The notes beneath the pieces were generated by a model. That model ran no database searches. It was not told the DNA's origin and saw nothing but the letters and a program-made list of their open reading frames with translations. This document shows, piece after piece, positions 1-6,105 of a stretch of DNA of 6,105 nt; within the stretch, counting starts at the first letter, position 1, and each line of letters starts with the position of its first letter. A program made the position numbers and the translations under genes. Source of the stretch: a virus; IMG/VR virus record IMGVR_UViG_3300020030_000131, positions 1 to 6,105 of that record. One strand, given 5' to 3'.

Positions 1-105
1 TGCCTCCTCCAGCATCGCCGTTATACGCGAAAATTCGTATCTGCTGGCGTTGGTGATTTTCTTGGCTATATGCCTCGTCCTTCTGCTCGTGTTTCGTCGT
101 GGTCT
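1..105. repeat. Terminal redundancy, copy 1. It is identical to 6001..6105, the signature of a circular genome that was linearised or assembled with overlap.
   Basis: Direct comparison shows all 105 nt of 1-105 equal to 6001-6105. The reading frame of the replication gene is continuous across the junction. Confidence 0.95.
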
Positions 106-450
106 TATTTCGATTTTGAGAGGAGGATCAATTATAATTACTCGATTCCTCGATATTACCTTAAATATCTTAAACCGGAGGACGAAGTCGTTCGTTCGAT
201 TACCGCTGCTGATTCTTATTCACATTTTAGCAAGTCTCCTCTGGTTAAGCGTGTTGTGTCTTTGTGTATTGAGCGGTTCAACCTCAATTCCTCCGTATCC
301 TGTAGAGCGTCGTATACGTGGGAGCAAAAGCAAATAATACGTTTTTCTGCCTCCTCTCGGAAGATGCCCGATTTCGACCCTCCTACTTGGTTGGATCTGG
401 ACATTCTTCAGTTTTGGAGAGATCATTATAAACTTCAACTAAACATTTAA
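1..450 (+). CDS. VP4: Replication initiator protein (rolling-circle HUH endonuclease, VP4-like), C-terminal part. It continues from 5380..6000 across the circular junction. The full product is 356 aa.
   Basis: Frame 1 is open from position 1 (CLLQHRRYTRKFVSAGVGDFLGYMPRP...) to the TAA at 448-450. It is the same frame as the ORF leaving the window at 6105. It contains a SIPRYYLKYL segment, which I recall as typical of microvirus Rep C-terminal regions. The ORF-track entry 70..450 is only the internal-Met fragment. Confidence 0.9.
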   Translation, partial: CLLQHRRYTRKFVSAGVGDFLGYMPRPSARVSSWSYFDFERRINYNYSIPRYYLKYLKPEDEVVRSITAADSYSHFSKSPLVKRVVSLCIERFNLNSSVSCRASYTWEQKQIIRFSASSRKMPDFDPPTWLDLDILQFWRDHYKLQLNI

Positions 451-453
451 TTT

Positions 454-2253
454 ATGGGTAAACAACCTTTCATTTCACATTCTGTAAATGGTTACTCTCG
501 CTACGATGTTCCTGAGAGTAAGGCCTTTACGTGTACACCGGGTATTCTGTACCCAGTGCGGATCGATTTTATTAATGCTCGTGACCGTGTGTCTATCGAG
601 CAGGGCATTGATGTTCGCAGCAATCCTCTTGCTGTTCCGACCTTTAACCCTTATACTATTCGACTTCATCGTTTTTGGGTGCCTCTTCAGCTGTATCATC
701 CTGAGTTGAGAACAAACAGCAGCAAGTTTGATATGAACGAGTTGAGTTTGAATTGGATTACCGCTCTTGTTGGTACTTCGGGCACGACCTCCCCTAATTC
801 TGCTCTTGGAACTTCGCGAGCTTACCCCAATTCGCTTATGTCTTGGCTCCGCGTTTCTAATAAGACATCGCTGCAGCTTTCTAACCAACCTCCTTATACC
901 GCCAGTCTTCCCTCCGGTGCTTCGGTTAATCAGTGGGCAAATGCTGATACATATTTAGCTTATTGGGATATCGTTCGCAATTATTATGGTTATTCACAGT
1001 GGGGGTTATATTCGATTGCGTGGCCTGCTTCCTGGTCGATTCTGCCAGATTCTTACTCTTTTGCTGACTCTGCTACGTTTTTTAAGCAAGAATATGCTAA
1101 CCTAGAATTTCTTGATGCTTATTTTGAGAGTCAGTTCTACCCGTCAGCTGTTTCGAGTTCAAATAACACGTTCAATAGGGGTAATTTGTTTTTCCAGATA
1201 ATCAATTCTCAGCTTCCGTCGGGAGGCGATCAAGATGGTTATCCCGTTTCTACTACGCTGCCTAGTGGTGCTCATATTATCTCCGGCAGCGGCCCAGCTG
1301 ATCAGTTTTCTGACGATATCGGTAGTACTTCTGTCACTGGTATTTCGGCTTTCTTGTTTGCGCATCCGATGGCTGTTATACCTTCGAATCCTGATCGTTT
1401 TAGCCGCCTTATTCCCGTGGGCTCTTCTTCTGCTGTTTCTATGTCTGGCGTCAGCACCATCCCGCAGTTGGCTATTGCTTCTCGTCTTCAGGAATACAAG
1501 GATTTGCTCGGCGCTGGTGGTAATCGTTATAGCGATTGGCTGGAGACGTTTTTTGCCTCTAAAATTGAGCACGTCGATAGGCCTAAACTCCTCTTTAGCG
1601 CGTCGCAGACCGTTAACGTGCAGATTGTTATGAATCAAGCCGGGCAAAATAATTTAGCGGTTTCGTCCCCTAACGGCCCTCTCGGTCAACAAGGAGGAGC
1701 AATTGCTTTTAACGATCGTTTGGGTCGTCGGCAGTCTTATTATTTTCGCGAGCCTGGTTACATGATCGATATGCTAAGTATCCGCCCTGTTTATTTTTGG
1801 AGTGGCGTCACGCCGGATTATTTGAATTATCAAGGCTCGGATTATTTCAACCCCATTTATAATGATATTGGTTATCAGGATGTTCCTGCTGCGCGTCTTT
1901 TTAGTAATGCTGCGGGCTCGGACCTTGGTCTCGCAGTCGCTTATGAGCCTTGCTTCAACGAGTTTCGTTCGTCTTATGATGAGGTATTAGGCTCACTGTC
2001 TTCGTATCCCGCTCCTGTAGTAGGCACTCCTAAGGCTCTTTACTCGTATTGGGTGCAGCAGCGTTCTCTCGGTTTCTCGTATGTGGGTTCCGCTTCTGCT
2101 AATTATTACCCTGCACTCTTTGTGGATATGGCGCAAGTCAATTCCCCCTTTTCTTCTAATACAGAGGATAACTTCTTTGTGAATTTGTCTTATGCCGTTC
2201 AGAAGAAGAATCTTATTAATAAAACCTTTGCAACTCGTTTGTCTAATCGTTAA
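454..2253 (+). CDS. VP1: Major capsid protein (Microviridae F/VP1 family), 599 aa
   Basis: This is the largest ORF and starts 3 nt after the Rep stop. The N-terminal pattern (short segment, then GILYPVRIDFINARDRVSIEQGIDVRSNPLAVPTFNPYTIRLHRFWVPLQLY) parallels the conserved microvirus capsid N-terminus (..G.L.P....EVLPGD......R..P...P......FFVP.RL.W). Third codon positions are strongly T-biased. Size is appropriate for VP1. Confidence 0.9.
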   Translation: MGKQPFISHSVNGYSRYDVPESKAFTCTPGILYPVRIDFINARDRVSIEQGIDVRSNPLAVPTFNPYTIRLHRFWVPLQLYHPELRTNSSKFDMNELSLNWITALVGTSGTTSPNSALGTSRAYPNSLMSWLRVSNKTSLQLSNQPPYTASLPSGASVNQWANADTYLAYWDIVRNYYGYSQWGLYSIAWPASWSILPDSYSFADSATFFKQEYANLEFLDAYFESQFYPSAVSSSNNTFNRGNLFFQIINSQLPSGGDQDGYPVSTTLPSGAHIISGSGPADQFSDDIGSTSVTGISAFLFAHPMAVIPSNPDRFSRLIPVGSSSAVSMSGVSTIPQLAIASRLQEYKDLLGAGGNRYSDWLETFFASKIEHVDRPKLLFSASQTVNVQIVMNQAGQNNLAVSSPNGPLGQQGGAIAFNDRLGRRQSYYFREPGYMIDMLSIRPVYFWSGVTPDYLNYQGSDYFNPIYNDIGYQDVPAARLFSNAAGSDLGLAVAYEPCFNEFRSSYDEVLGSLSSYPAPVVGTPKALYSYWVQQRSLGFSYVGSASANYYPALFVDMAQVNSPFSSNTEDNFFVNLSYAVQKKNLINKTFATRLSNR

Positions 2254-2265
2254 TACATTGATTTT

Positions 2266-2562
2266 ATGGCACTTGATTGGCTTCTTGAAGACGCTCCCGC
2301 CTATATTTCTCGCGGTCAGCGTATTCTTTCTGTTCTCAATGGTTCTGGTTCCGTTGACGTTCTTCCTGGTCGTCCGGATGTGGTGGCGGAATCGGCTGAT
2401 TTTGATAAGGGTGAGAGATTCAATCCCGAAATTGATTTCGACCCTAATTCATTCTCTCGTATGGATAAGTTTGACGGCCTCGAGGTTGGACAGGAACTTA
2501 TTGATTCAGAGTTGGATAAGTCGACGCCTACTTCTAAATCTTCCAATTCTGAAGAAAAATAG
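2266..2562 (+). CDS. Hypothetical small acidic protein (98 aa), a possible scaffolding-type protein
   Basis: ATG start 12 nt after the VP1 stop. T-rich third positions match the hallmark genes. By my count there are about 21 Asp/Glu against about 10 Arg/Lys. I recognise no motif. Confidence 0.6.
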   Translation: MALDWLLEDAPAYISRGQRILSVLNGSGSVDVLPGRPDVVAESADFDKGERFNPEIDFDPNSFSRMDKFDGLEVGQELIDSELDKSTPTSKSSNSEEK

Positions 2563-2632
2563 TATATCCTTTACTTGACGATATATGTTACGTGCGCGGA
2601 CCCCTTCTGAAAGAGTCCGTGAATTTCTGAAG
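2547..2632 (+). repeat. Three direct copies of TTCTGAAR within 86 nt (2547-2554 TTCTGAAG, 2605-2612 TTCTGAAA, 2625-2632 TTCTGAAG)
   Basis: Read directly. In my manual scan the only other full TTCTGAA-type match in the window was one reverse-complement copy inside VP2. The last two copies are 20 nt apart. Possible iteron or protein-binding repeat. Confidence 0.45.
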
Positions 2633-2806
2633 GTTATTGGTAACGACTGCAGGAGAGGCCGCGCATTTTTCTATCGTTCTTTATTCAATTGTTTACACCA
2701 TTGTGGCGCGGTGACGCATTTCGCGGTTCGGAGAACCGCCCCGAACGAAGTGAGGGTGCGGCACCGTAGCTTCCCTTTAAATTTTCAATATCATGTCAGA
2801 CGCTAA
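2585..2806 (+). CDS. Doubtful ORF: Arg-rich, very basic 73-aa protein (it would be a J/VP8-like DNA-binding protein if real)
   Basis: ATG-initiated ORF with about 16 Arg in 73 aa. Its T3 codon bias is clearly weaker than in neighbouring genes. It is filled with stable hairpins, contains a terminator-like structure, and overlaps the next ORF by 14 nt. Coding and non-coding readings cannot be separated by eye. Confidence 0.25.
   Translation: MLRARTPSERVREFLKVIGNDCRRGRAFFYRSLFNCLHHCGAVTHFAVRRTAPNEVRVRHRSFPLNFQYHVRR
2593..2670 (+). promoter_or_regulatory. Long imperfect hairpin (about 73 nt) with a GC-rich base, followed immediately by TTTTT. Candidate intrinsic terminator and/or ssDNA structural element.
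   Basis: Seven perfect bp: TGCGCGG 2593-2599 pairs with CCGCGCA 2659-2665. After bulged A2600, 2601-2609 pairs with 2650-2658 (one C.A mismatch, one T.G pair). Then AGTC 2614-2617 pairs with GACT 2645-2648. A T5 run lies at 2666-2670. Confidence 0.5.
2723..2765 (+). promoter_or_regulatory. Cluster of three overlapping, mutually exclusive GC-rich hairpins just upstream of the 63-aa ORF
   Basis: Hairpin A: GCGGTTC 2723-2729 pairs with GAACCGC 2733-2739 (7 bp, loop GGA). Hairpin B: CCGCCCC 2736-2742 pairs with GGG(T)GCGG 2754-2761 (7 bp, one bulge, 11-nt loop). Hairpin C: GGTG 2755-2758 pairs with CACC 2762-2765, part of the 11-nt palindrome GGTGCGGCACC. A/B and B/C share nucleotides. G+C is 46/70 in 2701-2770, against 28/70 in a VP1 sample (461-530). 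Confidence 0.5.
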
Positions 2807-2984
2807 ACAACCTTTCTATAAATCAAAGGCTTTTTGGACGCTTGTTTCATCCATTATCGCCGCGTTGGCTGCTTTTTTTCTCTCTTCGTGTGCTGCACAG
2901 GCAAGAATGCAGCGCAGTGGTGTTCACGTCGACACTGTGCGTGTTGATTATATCATTCGTTCTAATAATTTAACACACTTGTAG
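2793..2984 (+). CDS. Small membrane-targeted protein, putative lipoprotein (63 aa; predicted mature lipopeptide 31 aa)
   Basis: The N-terminus has Lys-containing n-region residues (K5, K10, K12), a hydrophobic core FWTLVSSIIAALAAFF, and then L-S-S-C. That matches the lipobox pattern [LVI][ASTVI][GAS]C, with Cys33 encoded by TGT at 2889-2891. The stop is 1 nt before the VP2 ATG. Third codon positions are moderately T-rich. Confidence 0.6.
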   Translation: MSDAKQPFYKSKAFWTLVSSIIAALAAFFLSSCAAQARMQRSGVHVDTVRVDYIIRSNNLTHL

Positions 2985-2985
2985 T

Positions 2986-4359
2986 ATGCCTGTTCCCGTT
3001 GCTGCTCCCGCTGCCGCATCTTTTGGCCAGGCTCTTGGACAGTCTGCTGCATCTTCCGGCGCTACTGGCCTGATATCTGGTGCACTCGGCCAACTTTTTG
3101 GTGGAATGAACGCTCGTCGCCAATGGCGTTTTCAGCAGAAGCAGATGGCTCTTCAGCAGAAATATGCTTTGGAGCAGATGCAGAGGCAGTCCGAGCTTTC
3201 TTATTCTAATTGGCAAAGGCAGTTTGATTATGAAAATTCATATAATGACCCCTCAAAGGTCTTTGATCGTTATTTGAAGGCTGGCGTAACCCCTGCTGCC
3301 GTTTTAGGCTCTTCGGGTGTTGGAGTGAACGCCACTATGTCCGGCGGTTCTGCGGGCATGCCCTCCGCTTCCGGCCCTTCCGGTGGCGCTCCCGTCAGTC
3401 CTGGTGCTTTTTCCCCTGGTGATCCCGCTGCTATCGCGCAGAATATGGTTGCGCAATCAACGGTAAGCCGTAACGATGCTGCTGCTAATCTTGATAACGC
3501 TCAAGCTCGATCAATTGATGACCAGAATGTTGGTAAACAGATGTACACTCTTATGGCTGAGACTCGTGTAGCCCTAGATCAGGCTGCTGCAAAGCATAAT
3601 TTAGCTGTTTCGGATGTTCTTAAAGTGCAGGAGGCTATTGAGAAAAATGCTCTTTTTATCTCTGATACTACTCTTTTGAGCGCTATTGCCGAGAAGAAGA
3701 GTCAAGCTGCTCTTGTTGATGCACAGGTCCGCCGCTTGAATATCGAGAATGAGCATTTAGGTGCTGTCCTGTCGGCTCAAGCCTTCATGATGAATACTCA
3801 AGGTGCTCTTAATCAAGTTCTTGGCGAGCAGGCTCGCGAAGTCATAGAGTCTTTGCATTTAAATAATCTCGATACTGCTAATGAGATCGCGCGTAATTGG
3901 GAAAAGCGTTTCGACGTTGAAATTCCGAATCCTCAGTATTCAGAAAATCTTAGAAGTAAAAACCCCATCACTCGCGGGAACCCTGGCCCTAAGACTTTCA
4001 AGATTTCGATGTCGCTTAAAGACTTTTACGATAAAACTATTATAAACGAAGCAAACGCATCTGATTTTCTCCCTGAGCAGGCTCGCATTGCACTTCGTAA
4101 TGCAAAGGTTGATCCGTATGTCGAGATTTCGAAGGCCCTTATAGGTGTCGCTGGTAGTCTTGTTGGTGCTGGCATTATACGAGGTGGAATGTCGCGCGCG
4201 GCCGGCACGATTTCCGCCGGCGGCTCTTCTAGTAGTTCTGCAGGCTCTTCGTTGACGACTCGTTATGATTCGAACGGAAATGTTGTTGGTTATGCTAAAA
4301 CTGAGATGAATCGTAGCGGTCATTCGAGTTCGTACAATAATTCTCGTCATTCACGTTGA
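2986..4359 (+). CDS. VP2: DNA pilot / minor capsid protein (Microviridae H/VP2-like), 457 aa
   Basis: Second-largest ORF, downstream of the capsid gene. It has an Ala/Gly-rich hydrophobic N-terminus and a Gln/Arg-rich helical segment (RRQWRFQQKQMALQQKYALEQMQRQSE). The segment NSYNDPSKVFDRYLKAGVTPAAVLG resembles the conserved ..AG(L/V)NP..-type motif I recall in microvirus pilot proteins. A long heptad-like Ala/Gln/Leu-rich centre is followed by a Gly-rich hydrophobic stretch and a Ser-rich tail. Confidence 0.8.
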   Translation: MPVPVAAPAAASFGQALGQSAASSGATGLISGALGQLFGGMNARRQWRFQQKQMALQQKYALEQMQRQSELSYSNWQRQFDYENSYNDPSKVFDRYLKAGVTPAAVLGSSGVGVNATMSGGSAGMPSASGPSGGAPVSPGAFSPGDPAAIAQNMVAQSTVSRNDAAANLDNAQARSIDDQNVGKQMYTLMAETRVALDQAAAKHNLAVSDVLKVQEAIEKNALFISDTTLLSAIAEKKSQAALVDAQVRRLNIENEHLGAVLSAQAFMMNTQGALNQVLGEQAREVIESLHLNNLDTANEIARNWEKRFDVEIPNPQYSENLRSKNPITRGNPGPKTFKISMSLKDFYDKTIINEANASDFLPEQARIALRNAKVDPYVEISKALIGVAGSLVGAGIIRGGMSRAAGTISAGGSSSSSAGSSLTTRYDSNGNVVGYAKTEMNRSGHSSSYNNSRHSR

Positions 4360-4364
4360 TTTTT

Positions 4365-4395
4365 TTTGGAGCTTCATTTTTTATTGTTATATTTG
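4365..4395 (+). promoter_or_regulatory. Bacteroides/Bacteroidota-type promoter: -33 TTTG (4365-4368), 19-nt spacer, -7 TATATTTG (4388-4395, matching TAnnTTTG)
   Basis: Exact match to both published consensus elements for Bacteroides primary-sigma promoters, with spacing in the reported 19-21 nt range. It lies in the 63-nt VP2-to-next-ORF intergenic region, about 28 nt upstream of the ATG at 4423. It is the only intergenic exact TAnnTTTG I found in the window. Confidence 0.6.
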
Positions 4396-4422
4396 CATTG
4401 TCAAACCAATAATCTTATTATT

Positions 4423-4728
4423 ATGAAAAAGCTTCAACAACCTGTAATCGACAAACTGTTACTCGATGTTATAGAGTACGCGTTCGTAGAGTGGCTTGTC
4501 CGTCGAGGAATATTTACTGCCTTTAGGGCGAACTATTGCCGCGTTCCTTCAACTCGAAAAACCTTTCGAGATTGCTTGCGTGATCACATCCGACGTGTTT
4601 ATCGTTCATCTAGCCTTGGCCCCGAGTCTCTCGTCTCCTCTGCTTTTTTATTTATTTCAACTCCTGAGGGTTGCGAATTCTGGACCAAGCACTCCGACGC
4701 TTGGAGGAGTTTTTACAATAAACTTTAA
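4423..4728 (+). CDS. Hypothetical protein (101 aa from ATG 4423; the track's 4366 start is a TTG upstream of the predicted transcription start)
   Basis: ATG is preceded by the AT-rich context ATTATTATGA, shared with the next gene. The C-terminal segment SSAFLFISTPEGCEFWTKHSDAWRSFY resembles an aF.W..TpEG..fW.....W motif that I recall from small phage or bacterial hypothetical proteins but cannot assign to a named family. Confidence 0.6.
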   Translation: MKKLQQPVIDKLLLDVIEYAFVEWLVRRGIFTAFRANYCRVPSTRKTFRDCLRDHIRRVYRSSSLGPESLVSSAFLFISTPEGCEFWTKHSDAWRSFYNKL

Positions 4729-4751
4729 ATGAAACGTTAAATTATATTATT

Positions 4752-5075
4752 ATGACACAGGTTCATATTGTTATTCGCCGCATCAATCCGGCTTTTAAGA
4801 TTGATTTAGTACAGGTAGGCTATATTAAAGATGGGCATTTCGAAATGCTTCATCTTAGTGATCTTGCTCATACGCCTATTTCTGACTATATAGAGCACTC
4901 TAGTATTGCTGCCTCGCCTTATATTGATCATTGTCATATTCCTAGTCTTGCAGCGGCTCTGGTTACCTGCCCTGATTTCTCGATCGATTTTTTCGATAAT
5001 ACGCTCGTTTTTATGTTTAGTACTAATCTGACTCACGATGAAATCACGTCGAAAGAAAAAGGGGAAGGGGACTAA
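4752..5075 (+). CDS. Hypothetical protein (107 aa), His- and Asp-rich, with no recognisable motif
   Basis: ATG in the same ATTATTATGA context. It is the only long ORF in this interval on the coding strand. It ends 45 nt before the strong terminator. Confidence 0.55.
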   Translation: MTQVHIVIRRINPAFKIDLVQVGYIKDGHFEMLHLSDLAHTPISDYIEHSSIAASPYIDHCHIPSLAAALVTCPDFSIDFFDNTLVFMFSTNLTHDEITSKEKGEGD

Positions 5076-5119
5076 AGTAGTCACCCGCCCGCTCGGTGGA
5101 AGAGTCCTCTGACTCGTTG

Positions 5120-5154
5120 GGCCTGCGGGGGAAATCTCTTGCAGGCCTTTTTTT
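5120..5154 (+). terminator. Rho-independent (intrinsic) terminator
   Basis: GGCCTGC 5120-5126 pairs with GCAGGCC 5141-5147. In RNA the stem can extend inward with G-C and G.U pairs (5127-5131 with 5136-5140, loop AAAT). It is followed directly by T7 at 5148-5154. A smaller hairpin, GAGTC 5102-5106 with GACTC 5111-5115, sits immediately upstream. Confidence 0.8.
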
Positions 5155-5179
5155 AAGTGTAGAGTAATGTTTTTAAATT

Positions 5180-5380
5180 ATGGATAATTTCGATTTCAGG
5201 CCTAGATTTTCCCCTACTATCAATGGCATTTCTCATCGCTATTCTATTGGCGCATACCGAGGTCGGAACCGAGTTGTTATCGCTTGGTTTGCCGACGAGA
5301 TCCCTGCGAATGACTATCTTGCTCGTTGTCTTCGTACTAATCCTTATATTAAGTTCGATTGCCTTAAAAGCCTTTTTTAA
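5180..5380 (+). CDS. Hypothetical small protein (66 aa) joined to the replication gene by a stop/start overlap
   Basis: ATG start and T-rich third positions. Its TAA stop (5378-5380) shares the A at 5380 with the Rep ATG (5380-5382), forming TAATG. It is the first ORF after the terminator. Confidence 0.5.
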   Translation: MDNFDFRPRFSPTINGISHRYSIGAYRGRNRVVIAWFADEIPANDYLARCLRTNPYIKFDCLKSLF

Positions 5381-6105
5381 TGGCCTGCTCTTCACCCATA
5401 TGGATACGAAATCGTCGTTACTTCGACAAGAAAAACCCTTGTCGTAACGGTTCTGATGTTGCCAAGTCCGCCTTAGCTCTTCGACCCTGGGACATTGCCC
5501 GCCAGTGGCTGATGGTTCCCTGTGGAAAGTGCGAAGACTGCTTGCGTCGGCAGCGTAATGATTGGTTTGTTCGGCTGGAGCGGGAGCTCGCCTGCTGCAA
5601 GGCTAATAACCAGCAGGCTATTTTTATTACGATAACTATTGCTCCGAGGTATTACAATGAAGCCTTGCTCGACCCCTCTCGATTCATCCGCCGTTTCAAT
5701 GAGCGCTTGCGACATAAACTCGGCCATTCGTTCAAGCATGCCTTTTTCCAGGAGTTCGGCACTCATCCGGAGATGGGAAATGAGCCTCGATTACATTTTC
5801 ATGGCTTTCTGTTTGGCACAAACGTTCTTTATAATACCATTCGCTCTGCCGTTCGAGATCTCGGCTTTGTGTGGCTCGCGAAAGCCACCCATAGACGCGC
5901 TCGCTATTGTGTGAAGTATGTTACTAAACAAATTCAATTTAACCCCGAGGAGATCTCGGATAAATATGTTACTGTAGATGGAAGACTTACACCTTTATCT
6001 TGCCTCCTCCAGCATCGCCGTTATACGCGAAAATTCGTATCTGCTGGCGTTGGTGATTTTCTTGGCTATATGCCTCGTCCTTCTGCTCGTGTTTCGTCGT
6101 GGTCT
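5380..6105 (+). CDS. VP4: Replication initiator protein (rolling-circle HUH endonuclease, VP4-like), N-terminal part. The ORF has no stop within the window and continues at position 1. The last 105 nt duplicate 1..105.
   Basis: My own translation of frame 1 gives an in-frame TAA at 5365-5367 and the first ATG at 5380. The product begins MACSSPIWIRN...WLMVPCGKCEDCLRRQRNDWFVRLE. Motif I is FITITI (5623-5640). The HUH motif is HFH within RLHFHGFLF (5794-5802). The catalytic two-tyrosine motif is YCVKYVTK (5905-5928; compare YxxKYxxK in phiX174 protein A). Confidence 0.92.
   Translation, partial: MACSSPIWIRNRRYFDKKNPCRNGSDVAKSALALRPWDIARQWLMVPCGKCEDCLRRQRNDWFVRLERELACCKANNQQAIFITITIAPRYYNEALLDPSRFIRRFNERLRHKLGHSFKHAFFQEFGTHPEMGNEPRLHFHGFLFGTNVLYNTIRSAVRDLGFVWLAKATHRRARYCVKYVTKQIQFNPEEISDKYVTVDGRLTPLSCLLQHRRYTRKFVSAGVGDFLGYMPRPSARVSSWS
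6001..6105. repeat. Terminal redundancy, copy 2 (identical to 1..105)
   Basis: Identical over all 105 nt by direct comparison. Confidence 0.95.

Follow-up and report, generated by a model that had tools for sequence, protein, structure and literature searches.

The DNA examined here is a 6,105-nucleotide (nt) stretch of a viral record (IMG/VR record IMGVR_UViG_3300020030_000131, positions 1 to 6,105; the whole stretch is hereafter called the window). Our subject is the block at 4360–5154, which follows the pilot protein gene VP2 and carries a promoter-like motif, two open reading frames (ORFs A and B), a J-like gene of 24 amino acids (aa) and an intrinsic terminator. We conclude that this block is probably a conserved, highly expressed operon of a clade of gut microviruses that most likely infect Bacteroidota, and not an imported cassette. 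This view is built on the sequence features of the block, their conservation, the covariation in the terminator, the presence and absence of genes among relatives, purifying selection and family relationships. An earlier sequence-only reading of the same DNA had described a promoter (TTTG-N19) at 4365–4395, two ORFs of 101 and 107 aa, and the strongest terminator of the genome just downstream, together forming a promoter-genes-terminator unit behind the pilot gene. This anatomy holds at the sequence level: the promoter motif is present, exact and conserved in relatives, both ORFs are present and under purifying selection, and the terminator took the top rank in a scan of the genome. The proposal in that reading that the unit is a moron-like accessory cassette fared worse, as described below. 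The features of the block, all on the plus strand, are as follows.

4365–4368, + strand: −33 element TTTG of a putative Bacteroidota sigma-ABfr-type promoter, 19 nt upstream of the −7 box
4388–4395, + strand: −7 element TATATTTG (TAnnTTTG), a conserved box
4396–4422, + strand: predicted transcription start and short leader without a Shine-Dalgarno sequence (CATTGTCAAACCAATAATCTTATTATT)
4423–4728, + strand: ORF A, 101 aa
4752–5075, + strand: ORF B, 107 aa
5038–5112, + strand: J-like 24-aa gene, in the +1 frame relative to ORF B
5119–5154, + strand: predicted intrinsic terminator (13-bp G+C-rich stem, 4-nt loop, seven T), beginning 7 nt after the J-like stop codon

Relatives were collected by an IMG/VR scan keyed on VP1 and hence independent of A and B. 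The scan gave 80 loci whose VP1 was at least 69% identical; 62 of these together with the window itself make up the set of 63 circular genomes used throughout. Presence and absence were also scored in 12 GenBank relatives, in 10 of which the J-like ORF was checked. We observed the following. The block is present in all the 63 circular genomes. ORF B occurs in every member of both sets (63/63 and 12/12), always directly after VP2 or A, and the ATG and reading frame of the J-like gene are kept in 63/63 circular genomes and in all the 10 GenBank relatives examined for it. ORF A, found in 63/63 circular genomes, is absent from four of the 12 GenBank relatives (MG945141, PQ006260, MK765655 and MT135342; L002, L004, L008 and L009 in our numbering). 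In these A-less genomes the spacer between VP2 and B is just 68–112 nt and B follows directly. The −7 box is retained and recognisable in MG945141 and PQ006260 (not clearly in MK765655 and MT135342), and a hairpin with a T-run is kept after the J-like gene in at least two of the four. As the promoter, B and the J-like gene persist without A, the regulatory signals would serve B and J and not an imported cargo. The unit moreover ends in a putative gene of the J/VP8 packaging type, and is therefore best regarded as a core unit.

The base composition of the block is ordinary (GC content 0.40–0.44, the genome as a whole having 0.45; third codon positions in B are rich in T). The ratios of nonsynonymous to synonymous substitution rates (dN/dS), which are rough figures as dS is saturated, were 0.30 for A and 0.27 for B, in the range of VP2 (0.30), with VP1 at 0.11, Rep at 0.10 and p66, the 66-aa ORF preceding Rep, at 0.15.

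The promoter motif TTTG-N19-TATATTTG at 4365–4395 is an exact match, with a 19-nt spacer, to the published sigma-ABfr consensus (−7 TAnnTTTG and a TTTG at about −33; PMC7366714). It was the sole match to TTTG-N17-23-TAnnTTTG when both strands of the window were scanned. Among the 63 circular genomes, the full −33/−7 motif occurs in the VP2-to-A spacer of 42–43. Just three further occurrences were seen in those genomes, two within A and one immediately ahead of B. The −7 box alone is found in this spacer in 55–56 of the 63; in 43 of these it ends 26 nt upstream of the ATG. The promoter is credible because of this conservation across relatives, and not from the match in a single genome. A leader segment, GTAAACCAATAAC, is also kept across relatives, and A residues at −3, −6, −11, −12, −14 and −15 before ORF A are found in 71–98% of them. 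A sigma-70 promoter in the same spacer was considered and rejected: the best hexamer pairs reach 9 of 12 positions, with −10 elements that stop 9 nt and 1 nt short of the ORF A start codon.

The two ORFs have the same start context, ATTATTATGA, at 4417–4426 (ORF A) and 4746–4755 (ORF B). This had been noted in the sequence-only reading as shared by the two and is indeed present, but it is not specific to the block. AT-rich leaders without a Shine-Dalgarno sequence precede all the eight genes of the genome. A GGAG/GAGG/AGGA core was found upstream of just 4 of 503 start codons in the 63 genomes, against a background of 7.8%. A is enriched at −3, −6 and −11 to −14 across start codons, most strongly for ORFs A and B. 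The A-rich positions of the Bacteroidetes translation-initiation context have been published together with the sigma-ABfr consensus (PMC7366714). The pattern suggests that ATTATTATGA is a good Bacteroidetes-type start context, permitting efficient translation of A and B, and not a signature of a cassette. Taken together, the promoter type, the missing Shine-Dalgarno sequences and the A-rich starts point to Bacteroidota as the most likely host phylum.

A second TAnnTTTG box was observed inside p66 (offset 170, 21 nt before the ATG of Rep) in 31 of the 63 genomes. In the window, 5349–5356 (TAAGTTCG) is a one-mismatch version of this box. It coincides with conserved K-F-D codons, and may reflect either an internal Rep promoter or a simple coding constraint. 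As a second promoter it was set aside, since it overlies these codons and the exact box is absent from the window.

The last gene of the block is the least conspicuous. The 24-aa ORF at 5038–5112 encodes MKSRRKKKGKGTKVVTRPLGGRVL and overlaps the last 38 nt of ORF B. The DNA just 3′ of the B stop codon has stayed conserved in all relatives, the most distant included. Across the relatives the peptide follows the consensus M(K/S)(S/A)RRKKKGKGTKVVTRP(L/V/F)(G/L)G(R/K/N/P)(V/I)L* and ends in the motif RP(L/V/F)(G/L)Gx(V/I)L*. The gene is unannotated in all the GenBank relatives. Its product has an isoelectric point (pI) of 12.0, a net charge of +9.5 and a Lys/Arg-rich N-terminus. J/VP8 proteins are Arg/Lys-rich and 25–40 aa long (PMC3091885), and the peptide, at 24 aa, has the size, charge and pI (~12 or higher) of this class. 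The capsid protein buries the hydrophobic C-terminus of J/VP8 proteins, in which structural conservation is limited to the last four residues (PMC11281519). The C-terminus RPLGGRVL of the window peptide resembles the gokushovirus VP8 ends ...RGGIRL and ...RGGIRF, a likeness in sequence only. From the properties of the peptide and its position we infer a J/VP8-type DNA-binding packaging protein. A B-J fusion made by programmed frameshifting was also considered and rejected, as the overlap has no canonical slippery heptamer in the B frame and every relative has its own J-like ATG.

The terminator follows this gene. Its stem (5119–5148) has 13 pairs, eight of them G-C, and the hairpin dominates the local RNA fold. 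About 45 of the 62 relatives have a hairpin abutting a T-run, mostly 35–41 nt past the J-like stop codon, with differing stem sequences. A first RNAalifold run on the terminators, in which loop lengths were misaligned, gave a weak result, and pairs were counted explicitly instead. In 20 aligned terminators, 8 of the 13 pairs have changed on both sides. In 500 shuffles neither the paired fraction nor the covariation score ever rose to the observed value, and every slid register gave a lower score. Thus the G+C-rich hairpin, the U-tract and the compensatory changes of an intrinsic terminator are all found here. In many relatives, among them L001 (5620–5700) and L005 (5557–5640), a longer conserved G+C-rich structured element (GAACCCCAGGGGACAACCGAAGGTTGTGGCCACCGCGAAGCGGTAAGG...CCCCTGTGGGTTC) lies 3′ of the J-like gene; at this site the window has the simple terminator hairpin only.

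ORF B encodes an acidic protein (107 aa, pI 5.1) with a predicted alpha/beta fold. A metagenome-wide protein search yielded >300 clusters of homologues, nearly all of 107 aa and from contigs of ~6 kb. No match was found in Pfam, PHROG or NCBIfam, and a Foldseek search of the PDB gave none below E=0.4. The best PDB fold match, GFRP (probability 0.4, TM (template modelling) score ~0.4), was treated as chance, and a PDB profile match to 8fje 'E8' (35 residues, E=0.0037) was disregarded. Against BFVD, six matches had a TM score of at least 0.5, all to uncharacterised proteins; three carry a name, all from Microviridae, and three have none. A marine microvirus protein of 19% identity is included. 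Judged by its distribution and its matches, ORF B is a clade-wide core protein with relatives only in microviruses. Its role is presumably in procapsid assembly or in the synthesis or packaging of single-stranded DNA (ssDNA), and it is a prime candidate for the missing assembly or packaging factor, either scaffold-like or C/VP5-like.

ORF A, on the other hand, alone in the block looks dispensable, and has relatives in unrelated mobile elements. The protein is basic (101 aa, pI 9.7) and its AlphaFold model is all-helical with five helices (predicted local distance difference test score, pLDDT, 88). Foldseek found no fold match to the model in the PDB (none below E=5), and a PDB profile search gave no match. 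Homologues of A form 146 clusters in the metagenome-wide protein search, nearly all of 101 aa and on contigs of ~6 kb. The two more distant genomes MG945509 and MG945453 (L099 and L100) carry an 86-aa form at the same site. The VP1 of these genomes and of the A-less ones is 66–88% identical to that of the window. A thus appears to be an old resident of the locus that was repeatedly lost; it is therefore dispensable, but not a recent import with its own signals.

The sequence-only reading had linked a TPEG..FW...W motif in ORF A to widespread small hypothetical proteins, and this was borne out. All the 33 aligned A proteins matched phrog_10949 (best E-value 4.9e-5). In the alignment across the family, no variation is seen at the F, W and W positions and almost none at T, E and G, the family pattern being F..FL..G....F..N ... 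AFxW..TPEG..FW......W. The C-terminal AFxW..TPEG..FW......W module is common to ORF A and the small phage proteins of phrog_10949 and phrog_16354; unlike these, ORF A has a ~25-residue insertion between the N-terminal helices and the C-terminal motif. A HMMER scan of 1.8 billion representative proteins found 90 A-type clusters at E<=1e-3. They comprise orthologues of 104–106 aa, stand-alone forms of 69–94 aa, and proteins of 182–572 aa in which the domain is repeated in tandem, two to five times. It is covered by no model of Pfam or NCBIfam, and the sole library matches are PHROGs of no assigned function. Members were found on a portal-encoding double-stranded DNA (dsDNA) phage contig, on DUF932/RepL elements (one with three paralogues) and in a 735-kb uncultured phage.

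Some individual loci of this family are worth recording. The A-type proteins of L184 (ENA NODE_741, 44.9 kb) and L182 are several 94-aa paralogues (3231–3515, 9634–9918 and 10001–10285) and two-repeat forms of 186–191 aa, with DUF932 and RepL as neighbours, and these loci have the look of a plasmid or phage-plasmid. L097 (ENA NODE_463, 12,120 nt) is a dimer in which two genome copies, differing slightly from each other, lie head to tail. Gene calling overlooked ORF A in this contig, although an intact 105-aa homologue lies at 1937–2254.

We propose that the operon would work as follows. The sigma-ABfr-type promoter (−33 TTTG, −7 TATATTTG) would start a transcript near 4400 that carries A, B and the J-like gene, all three having A-rich initiation regions that lack a Shine-Dalgarno sequence. 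ORF A would supply an auxiliary basic helical protein of a domain family widespread in mobile elements, lost in some relatives. ORF B would supply an acidic alpha/beta factor for procapsid assembly or for ssDNA synthesis or packaging. The J-like peptide would escort the ssDNA into the procapsid, with its ...GGRVL tail anchored in a hydrophobic pocket of the capsid protein. The terminator 7 nt past the J-like gene would end most transcripts, giving a short abundant mRNA for proteins that are needed stoichiometrically, and read-through beyond it could feed p66 and Rep at a lower level.

This arrangement has a close counterpart in phiX174. There, the late unit runs P_D - D (external scaffold) - E - J - terminator T_J, and the morphogenetic genes whose products are needed in the largest amounts are under its promoter. 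J, at the end of the unit, is tiny and encodes a Lys/Arg-rich protein with a hydrophobic C-terminus, and the terminator comes directly after it. The window unit likewise has a promoter, a tiny basic last gene that abuts or overlaps the gene upstream, and a terminator directly after. It differs from phiX174 in that neither A nor B resembles D or E in sequence or fold, that the promoter belongs to the Bacteroidota type, and that the J-like gene, in the +1 frame, shares 38 nt with B.

The position of A-B-J between VP2 and VP4 also recalls the VP3/VP5/VP8 block of the Gokushovirinae, where the order is VP2-VP3-VP5-VP8-VP4 in phiMH2K and VP2-VP3-ORF8-ORF4 in Chp2. The J-like peptide ends in GG-x-x-L, as gokushoviral VP8 ends in GG-x-x-L or GG-x-x-F. 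However, VP8 is 38–44 aa long and the window peptide 24 aa, and no homology was detectable for A, B or the J-like peptide. With the Bacteroidetes microviruses (the proposed Alpavirinae and the BMV proviruses), the window has in common the inferred host phylum, the order VP4-VP1-(acidic ORF)-VP2, and the fact that only VP1, VP2 and VP4 are recognisable by sequence. The 2011 description of that group reported no equivalents of J/VP8, C/VP5 or other small genes (PMC3091885). In contrast, a J-like gene is evident in the window clade. Phage morons, exemplified by the lambdoid promoter-ORF-terminator insertions, are similarly compact units bounded by a promoter and a terminator. Unlike these, the window block is neither sporadic nor compositionally distinct and holds core genes, A alone being patchy.

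The moron comparison was at the centre of the sequence-only reading, which took the whole block as an autonomous accessory cassette for host takeover, anti-defence or exclusion, added to a minimal microvirus. The flanking promoter and terminator, the products without known function (neither resembles capsid, Rep or pilot proteins by Pfam or PHROG, as had been stated), the presence of the A family in dsDNA phages, DUF932/RepL elements and a 735-kb phage, and the absence of A in 4 of 12 GenBank relatives would all suit such a cassette. Its distribution, however, largely refutes it. B is universal and the J-like gene is in every genome examined, A being missing in those four. None of the 63 circular relatives lacks the block as a whole, and where A is missing the promoter, B and J stay. 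The composition is normal, the named fold matches of B are from Microviridae only, and the last gene of the unit looks to be of a core packaging type. We regard a moron-like cassette as very unlikely, and it survives only in weakened form, for ORF A. The caveat attached to the same reading, that A and B could be unrecognisably diverged forms of the gokushoviral VP3 (internal scaffold) and VP5 (phiX174 C-like ssDNA-synthesis factor), so that the block is VP3-VP5-VP8 as in phiMH2K, gains from the gene order, which is exactly that of phiMH2K. The proteins are of broadly similar size, rapid evolution is usual for scaffold and C-like proteins, and earlier surveys missed VP3/VP5 by sequence in microviruses of the Bacteroidetes type. 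Yet the profile and structure comparisons (AlphaFold, Foldseek and hhalign) returned no VP3 or VP5 match for A or B: hhalign probabilities stayed <1%, Pfam and PHROG gave no match, and no named VP3 or VP5 is among the top 50 BFVD matches of B. A, being dispensable in four relatives and belonging to a non-microviral domain family, would be ill-fitting as an essential scaffold. The position that the literature predicts for VP3, directly after VP1, is occupied by p98, an acidic and probably disordered protein. Divergence from VP3 and VP5 by descent is thus unlikely, though a positional and functional equivalence of A and B to these proteins is possible.

Two further alternatives concern the signals and not the genes. 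The unit may not be self-contained: the genome might depend mainly or solely on the promoter at 4365–4395, the hairpin being a leaky attenuator with transcripts running on through p66, Rep, VP1 and beyond. Transcripts of phiX174 do read through its terminators. All genes are on one strand, the window has no other intergenic consensus promoter, the full motif lies outside the VP2-to-A spacer just three times in 63 genomes, and 15 of the 62 relatives have no clear hairpin abutting a T-run. On this account, however, the abundant VP1 would sit behind a 13-bp G+C-rich terminator with seven T. Also, 31 of 63 relatives have the −7-like box in p66, 21 nt upstream of the ATG of Rep, and this box may act as a second promoter. 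Moreover, the −33 element is poorly conserved in some Bacteroidetes (PMC7366714), so that a motif scan may overlook real promoters. We consider dominant read-through doubtful but compatible with a core operon, the difference being of degree only. Alternatively, the host could lie outside the Bacteroidota, for example in the Clostridia, and TTTG-N19-TATATTTG could be a conserved AT-rich spacer with another role and not a sigma-ABfr promoter. In favour of this, 1,174 nt of the operon adjoin a Clostridia-like chromosome in one scaffold (L094), the motif on its own does not reach significance, and no prophage was found in Bacteroidota genomes. Against it, no Shine-Dalgarno sequence is seen upstream of genes in 63 genomes, which is unusual for phages of Bacillota and typical for those of Bacteroidota, and the A-rich positions match the Bacteroidetes pattern. 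The best sigma-70-like pairs are poorly placed, with −10 elements ending 9 nt and 1 nt before ORF A, and the L094 junction, inside Rep at a scaffold end, looks chimeric. Such a host is, in our judgement, quite improbable.

A number of observations weigh against a core operon of a Bacteroidota phage, and they are gathered here. The activity of the promoter and of the terminator is predicted from the sequence. By itself the promoter motif is not significant, with 0.20 matches expected and at least one found in 37 of 200 shuffles. The J-like peptide had no match in Pfam, PHROG or the PDB, and hhalign gave a probability of 0.4% against gokushovirus VP8, so that its assignment stands without homology; the peptide is too short and of too low complexity for profile tests to be decisive. 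Foldseek against the PDB and profile searches showed no likeness of A or B to the phiX174 scaffolds D and B, and no similarity to phiX174 B, C or D. In hhalign, A, B, p98, p66 and p63 (a small membrane-type ORF before VP2) all remained <1% against gokushoviral VP3 (PF09675), VP5 and VP8 (A and B at most 0.5% against VP3/VP5), where the VP3 reference alignment held three sequences only. The best of five AlphaFold models of ORF B had a pLDDT of 82 and the other four were poor. The acidic p98, just after VP1, is a scaffold candidate at least as good as B. As for the host, a VP1 profile found no prophage relatives in 185,000 representative genomes, and the Clostridia junction in L094 conflicts with a Bacteroidota host unless this scaffold is a chimera.

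L094 (ENA scaffold HANS18-1...scaffold_2330, 17 kb) contains, within 1–1300, a 1,174-nt microvirus fragment that begins at the promoter, takes in A, B, the J-like gene and p66, and stops 110 nt into Rep. The fragment is 99.8% identical to the circular genome L096, and the junction corresponds to about 5491 of the window. The bacterial side is a Clostridia-like segment with CdaA, YbbR and ProRS, the last being 81–83% identical to Clostridia metagenome-assembled genomes. With the junction inside Rep at the scaffold end, L094 is probably an assembly chimera, the alternative being an integration remnant.

Taking the core operon as the preferred reading, a more specific and more tentative scenario can be put forward. 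The clade may package its DNA with the overprinted 24-aa J-like peptide, with the microvirus-specific alpha/beta protein B replacing helpers of the VP3/VP5/D type. A could then be an accessory host-interaction or anti-defence factor, captured into the most strongly expressed operon from a helical family of the phages and plasmid-like elements of gut anaerobes. We offer these joint assignments as a conjecture.

Gut microviruses of this type are abundant, as indicated by the >300 clusters of ORF B and ~146 of ORF A on contigs of ~6 kb, and in this clade the genes beyond VP1, VP2 and VP4 are annotated as hypothetical. The analysis gives a fuller gene map. The A, B and J genes are already in many public genomes, unannotated or as hypothetical, and the architecture is a variant of the known microvirus design. 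What appear to be new are the overprinted J-like gene in a clade of the Bacteroidota type (a gene class reported missing from Bacteroidetes microviruses in 2011), B as a core family confined to microviruses, and the delineation of the uncurated domain family of A, which could be curated and tested. A false lead is also removed, as the block is not likely to be imported cargo. From the conserved promoter and the lack of Shine-Dalgarno sequences in the leaders, the host phylum can be predicted, which would be useful for phage isolation or resurrection.

The rest of the window is that of a circular microvirus genome of ~6,000 nt, with bases 1–105 recurring at 6001–6105. All genes are on the plus strand, in the order VP4-VP1-p98-p100/p63-VP2-A-B-J-p66. 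Those outside the block are the following.

5380–6000 joined to 1–450, + strand: Rep/VP4, PHROG/Pfam match
454–2253, + strand: VP1, PHROG/Pfam match
2266–2562, + strand: p98, acidic 98-aa ORF
2793–2984, + strand: p63, small membrane-type ORF
2986–4359, + strand: pilot protein VP2, PHROG/Pfam match
5180–5380, + strand: p66, 66-aa ORF whose stop codon overlaps the Rep start (TAATG)

PHROG and Pfam scans identified none of the window ORFs beyond VP1, VP2 and Rep, and an Rfam scan of the window gave no match. Searches of GenBank phages (blastn and tblastn) retrieved ~60 related genomes named "Microviridae sp.", bajarodmic, tortoise, Dulem and similar, from animal faeces, with the gene order common to all. 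Each of p98, p63/p100 and p66 is present in 63 of the 63 circular relatives.

Krupovic and Forterre predicted a VP3-like internal scaffold directly after VP1 in Bacteroidetes microviruses (PMC3091885). In the window this position is that of p98 (2266–2562), which is strongly acidic (pI 4.2), has a low-complexity look and is present in 63/63 genomes; hhalign gave no support for a relationship of p98 to VP3. p66 (5180–5380) is another candidate for a C/VP5-like replication or packaging factor.

Part of the apparent 230-nt non-coding gap at 2563–2792 (and of the region 2585–2984) corresponds to a disrupted gene, which in relatives is one 100-aa ORF immediately preceding VP2 (as in L095, 3069–3371). 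In the window and in MG945813, a ~110-nt G+C-rich hairpin-forming insertion (~2683–2790) splits this ORF into p63 and an ORF at 2585–2806, of which only the first 33 aa are conserved. The ssDNA fold has a z of −3.1, and this may be a small structured insertion or an origin-like element.

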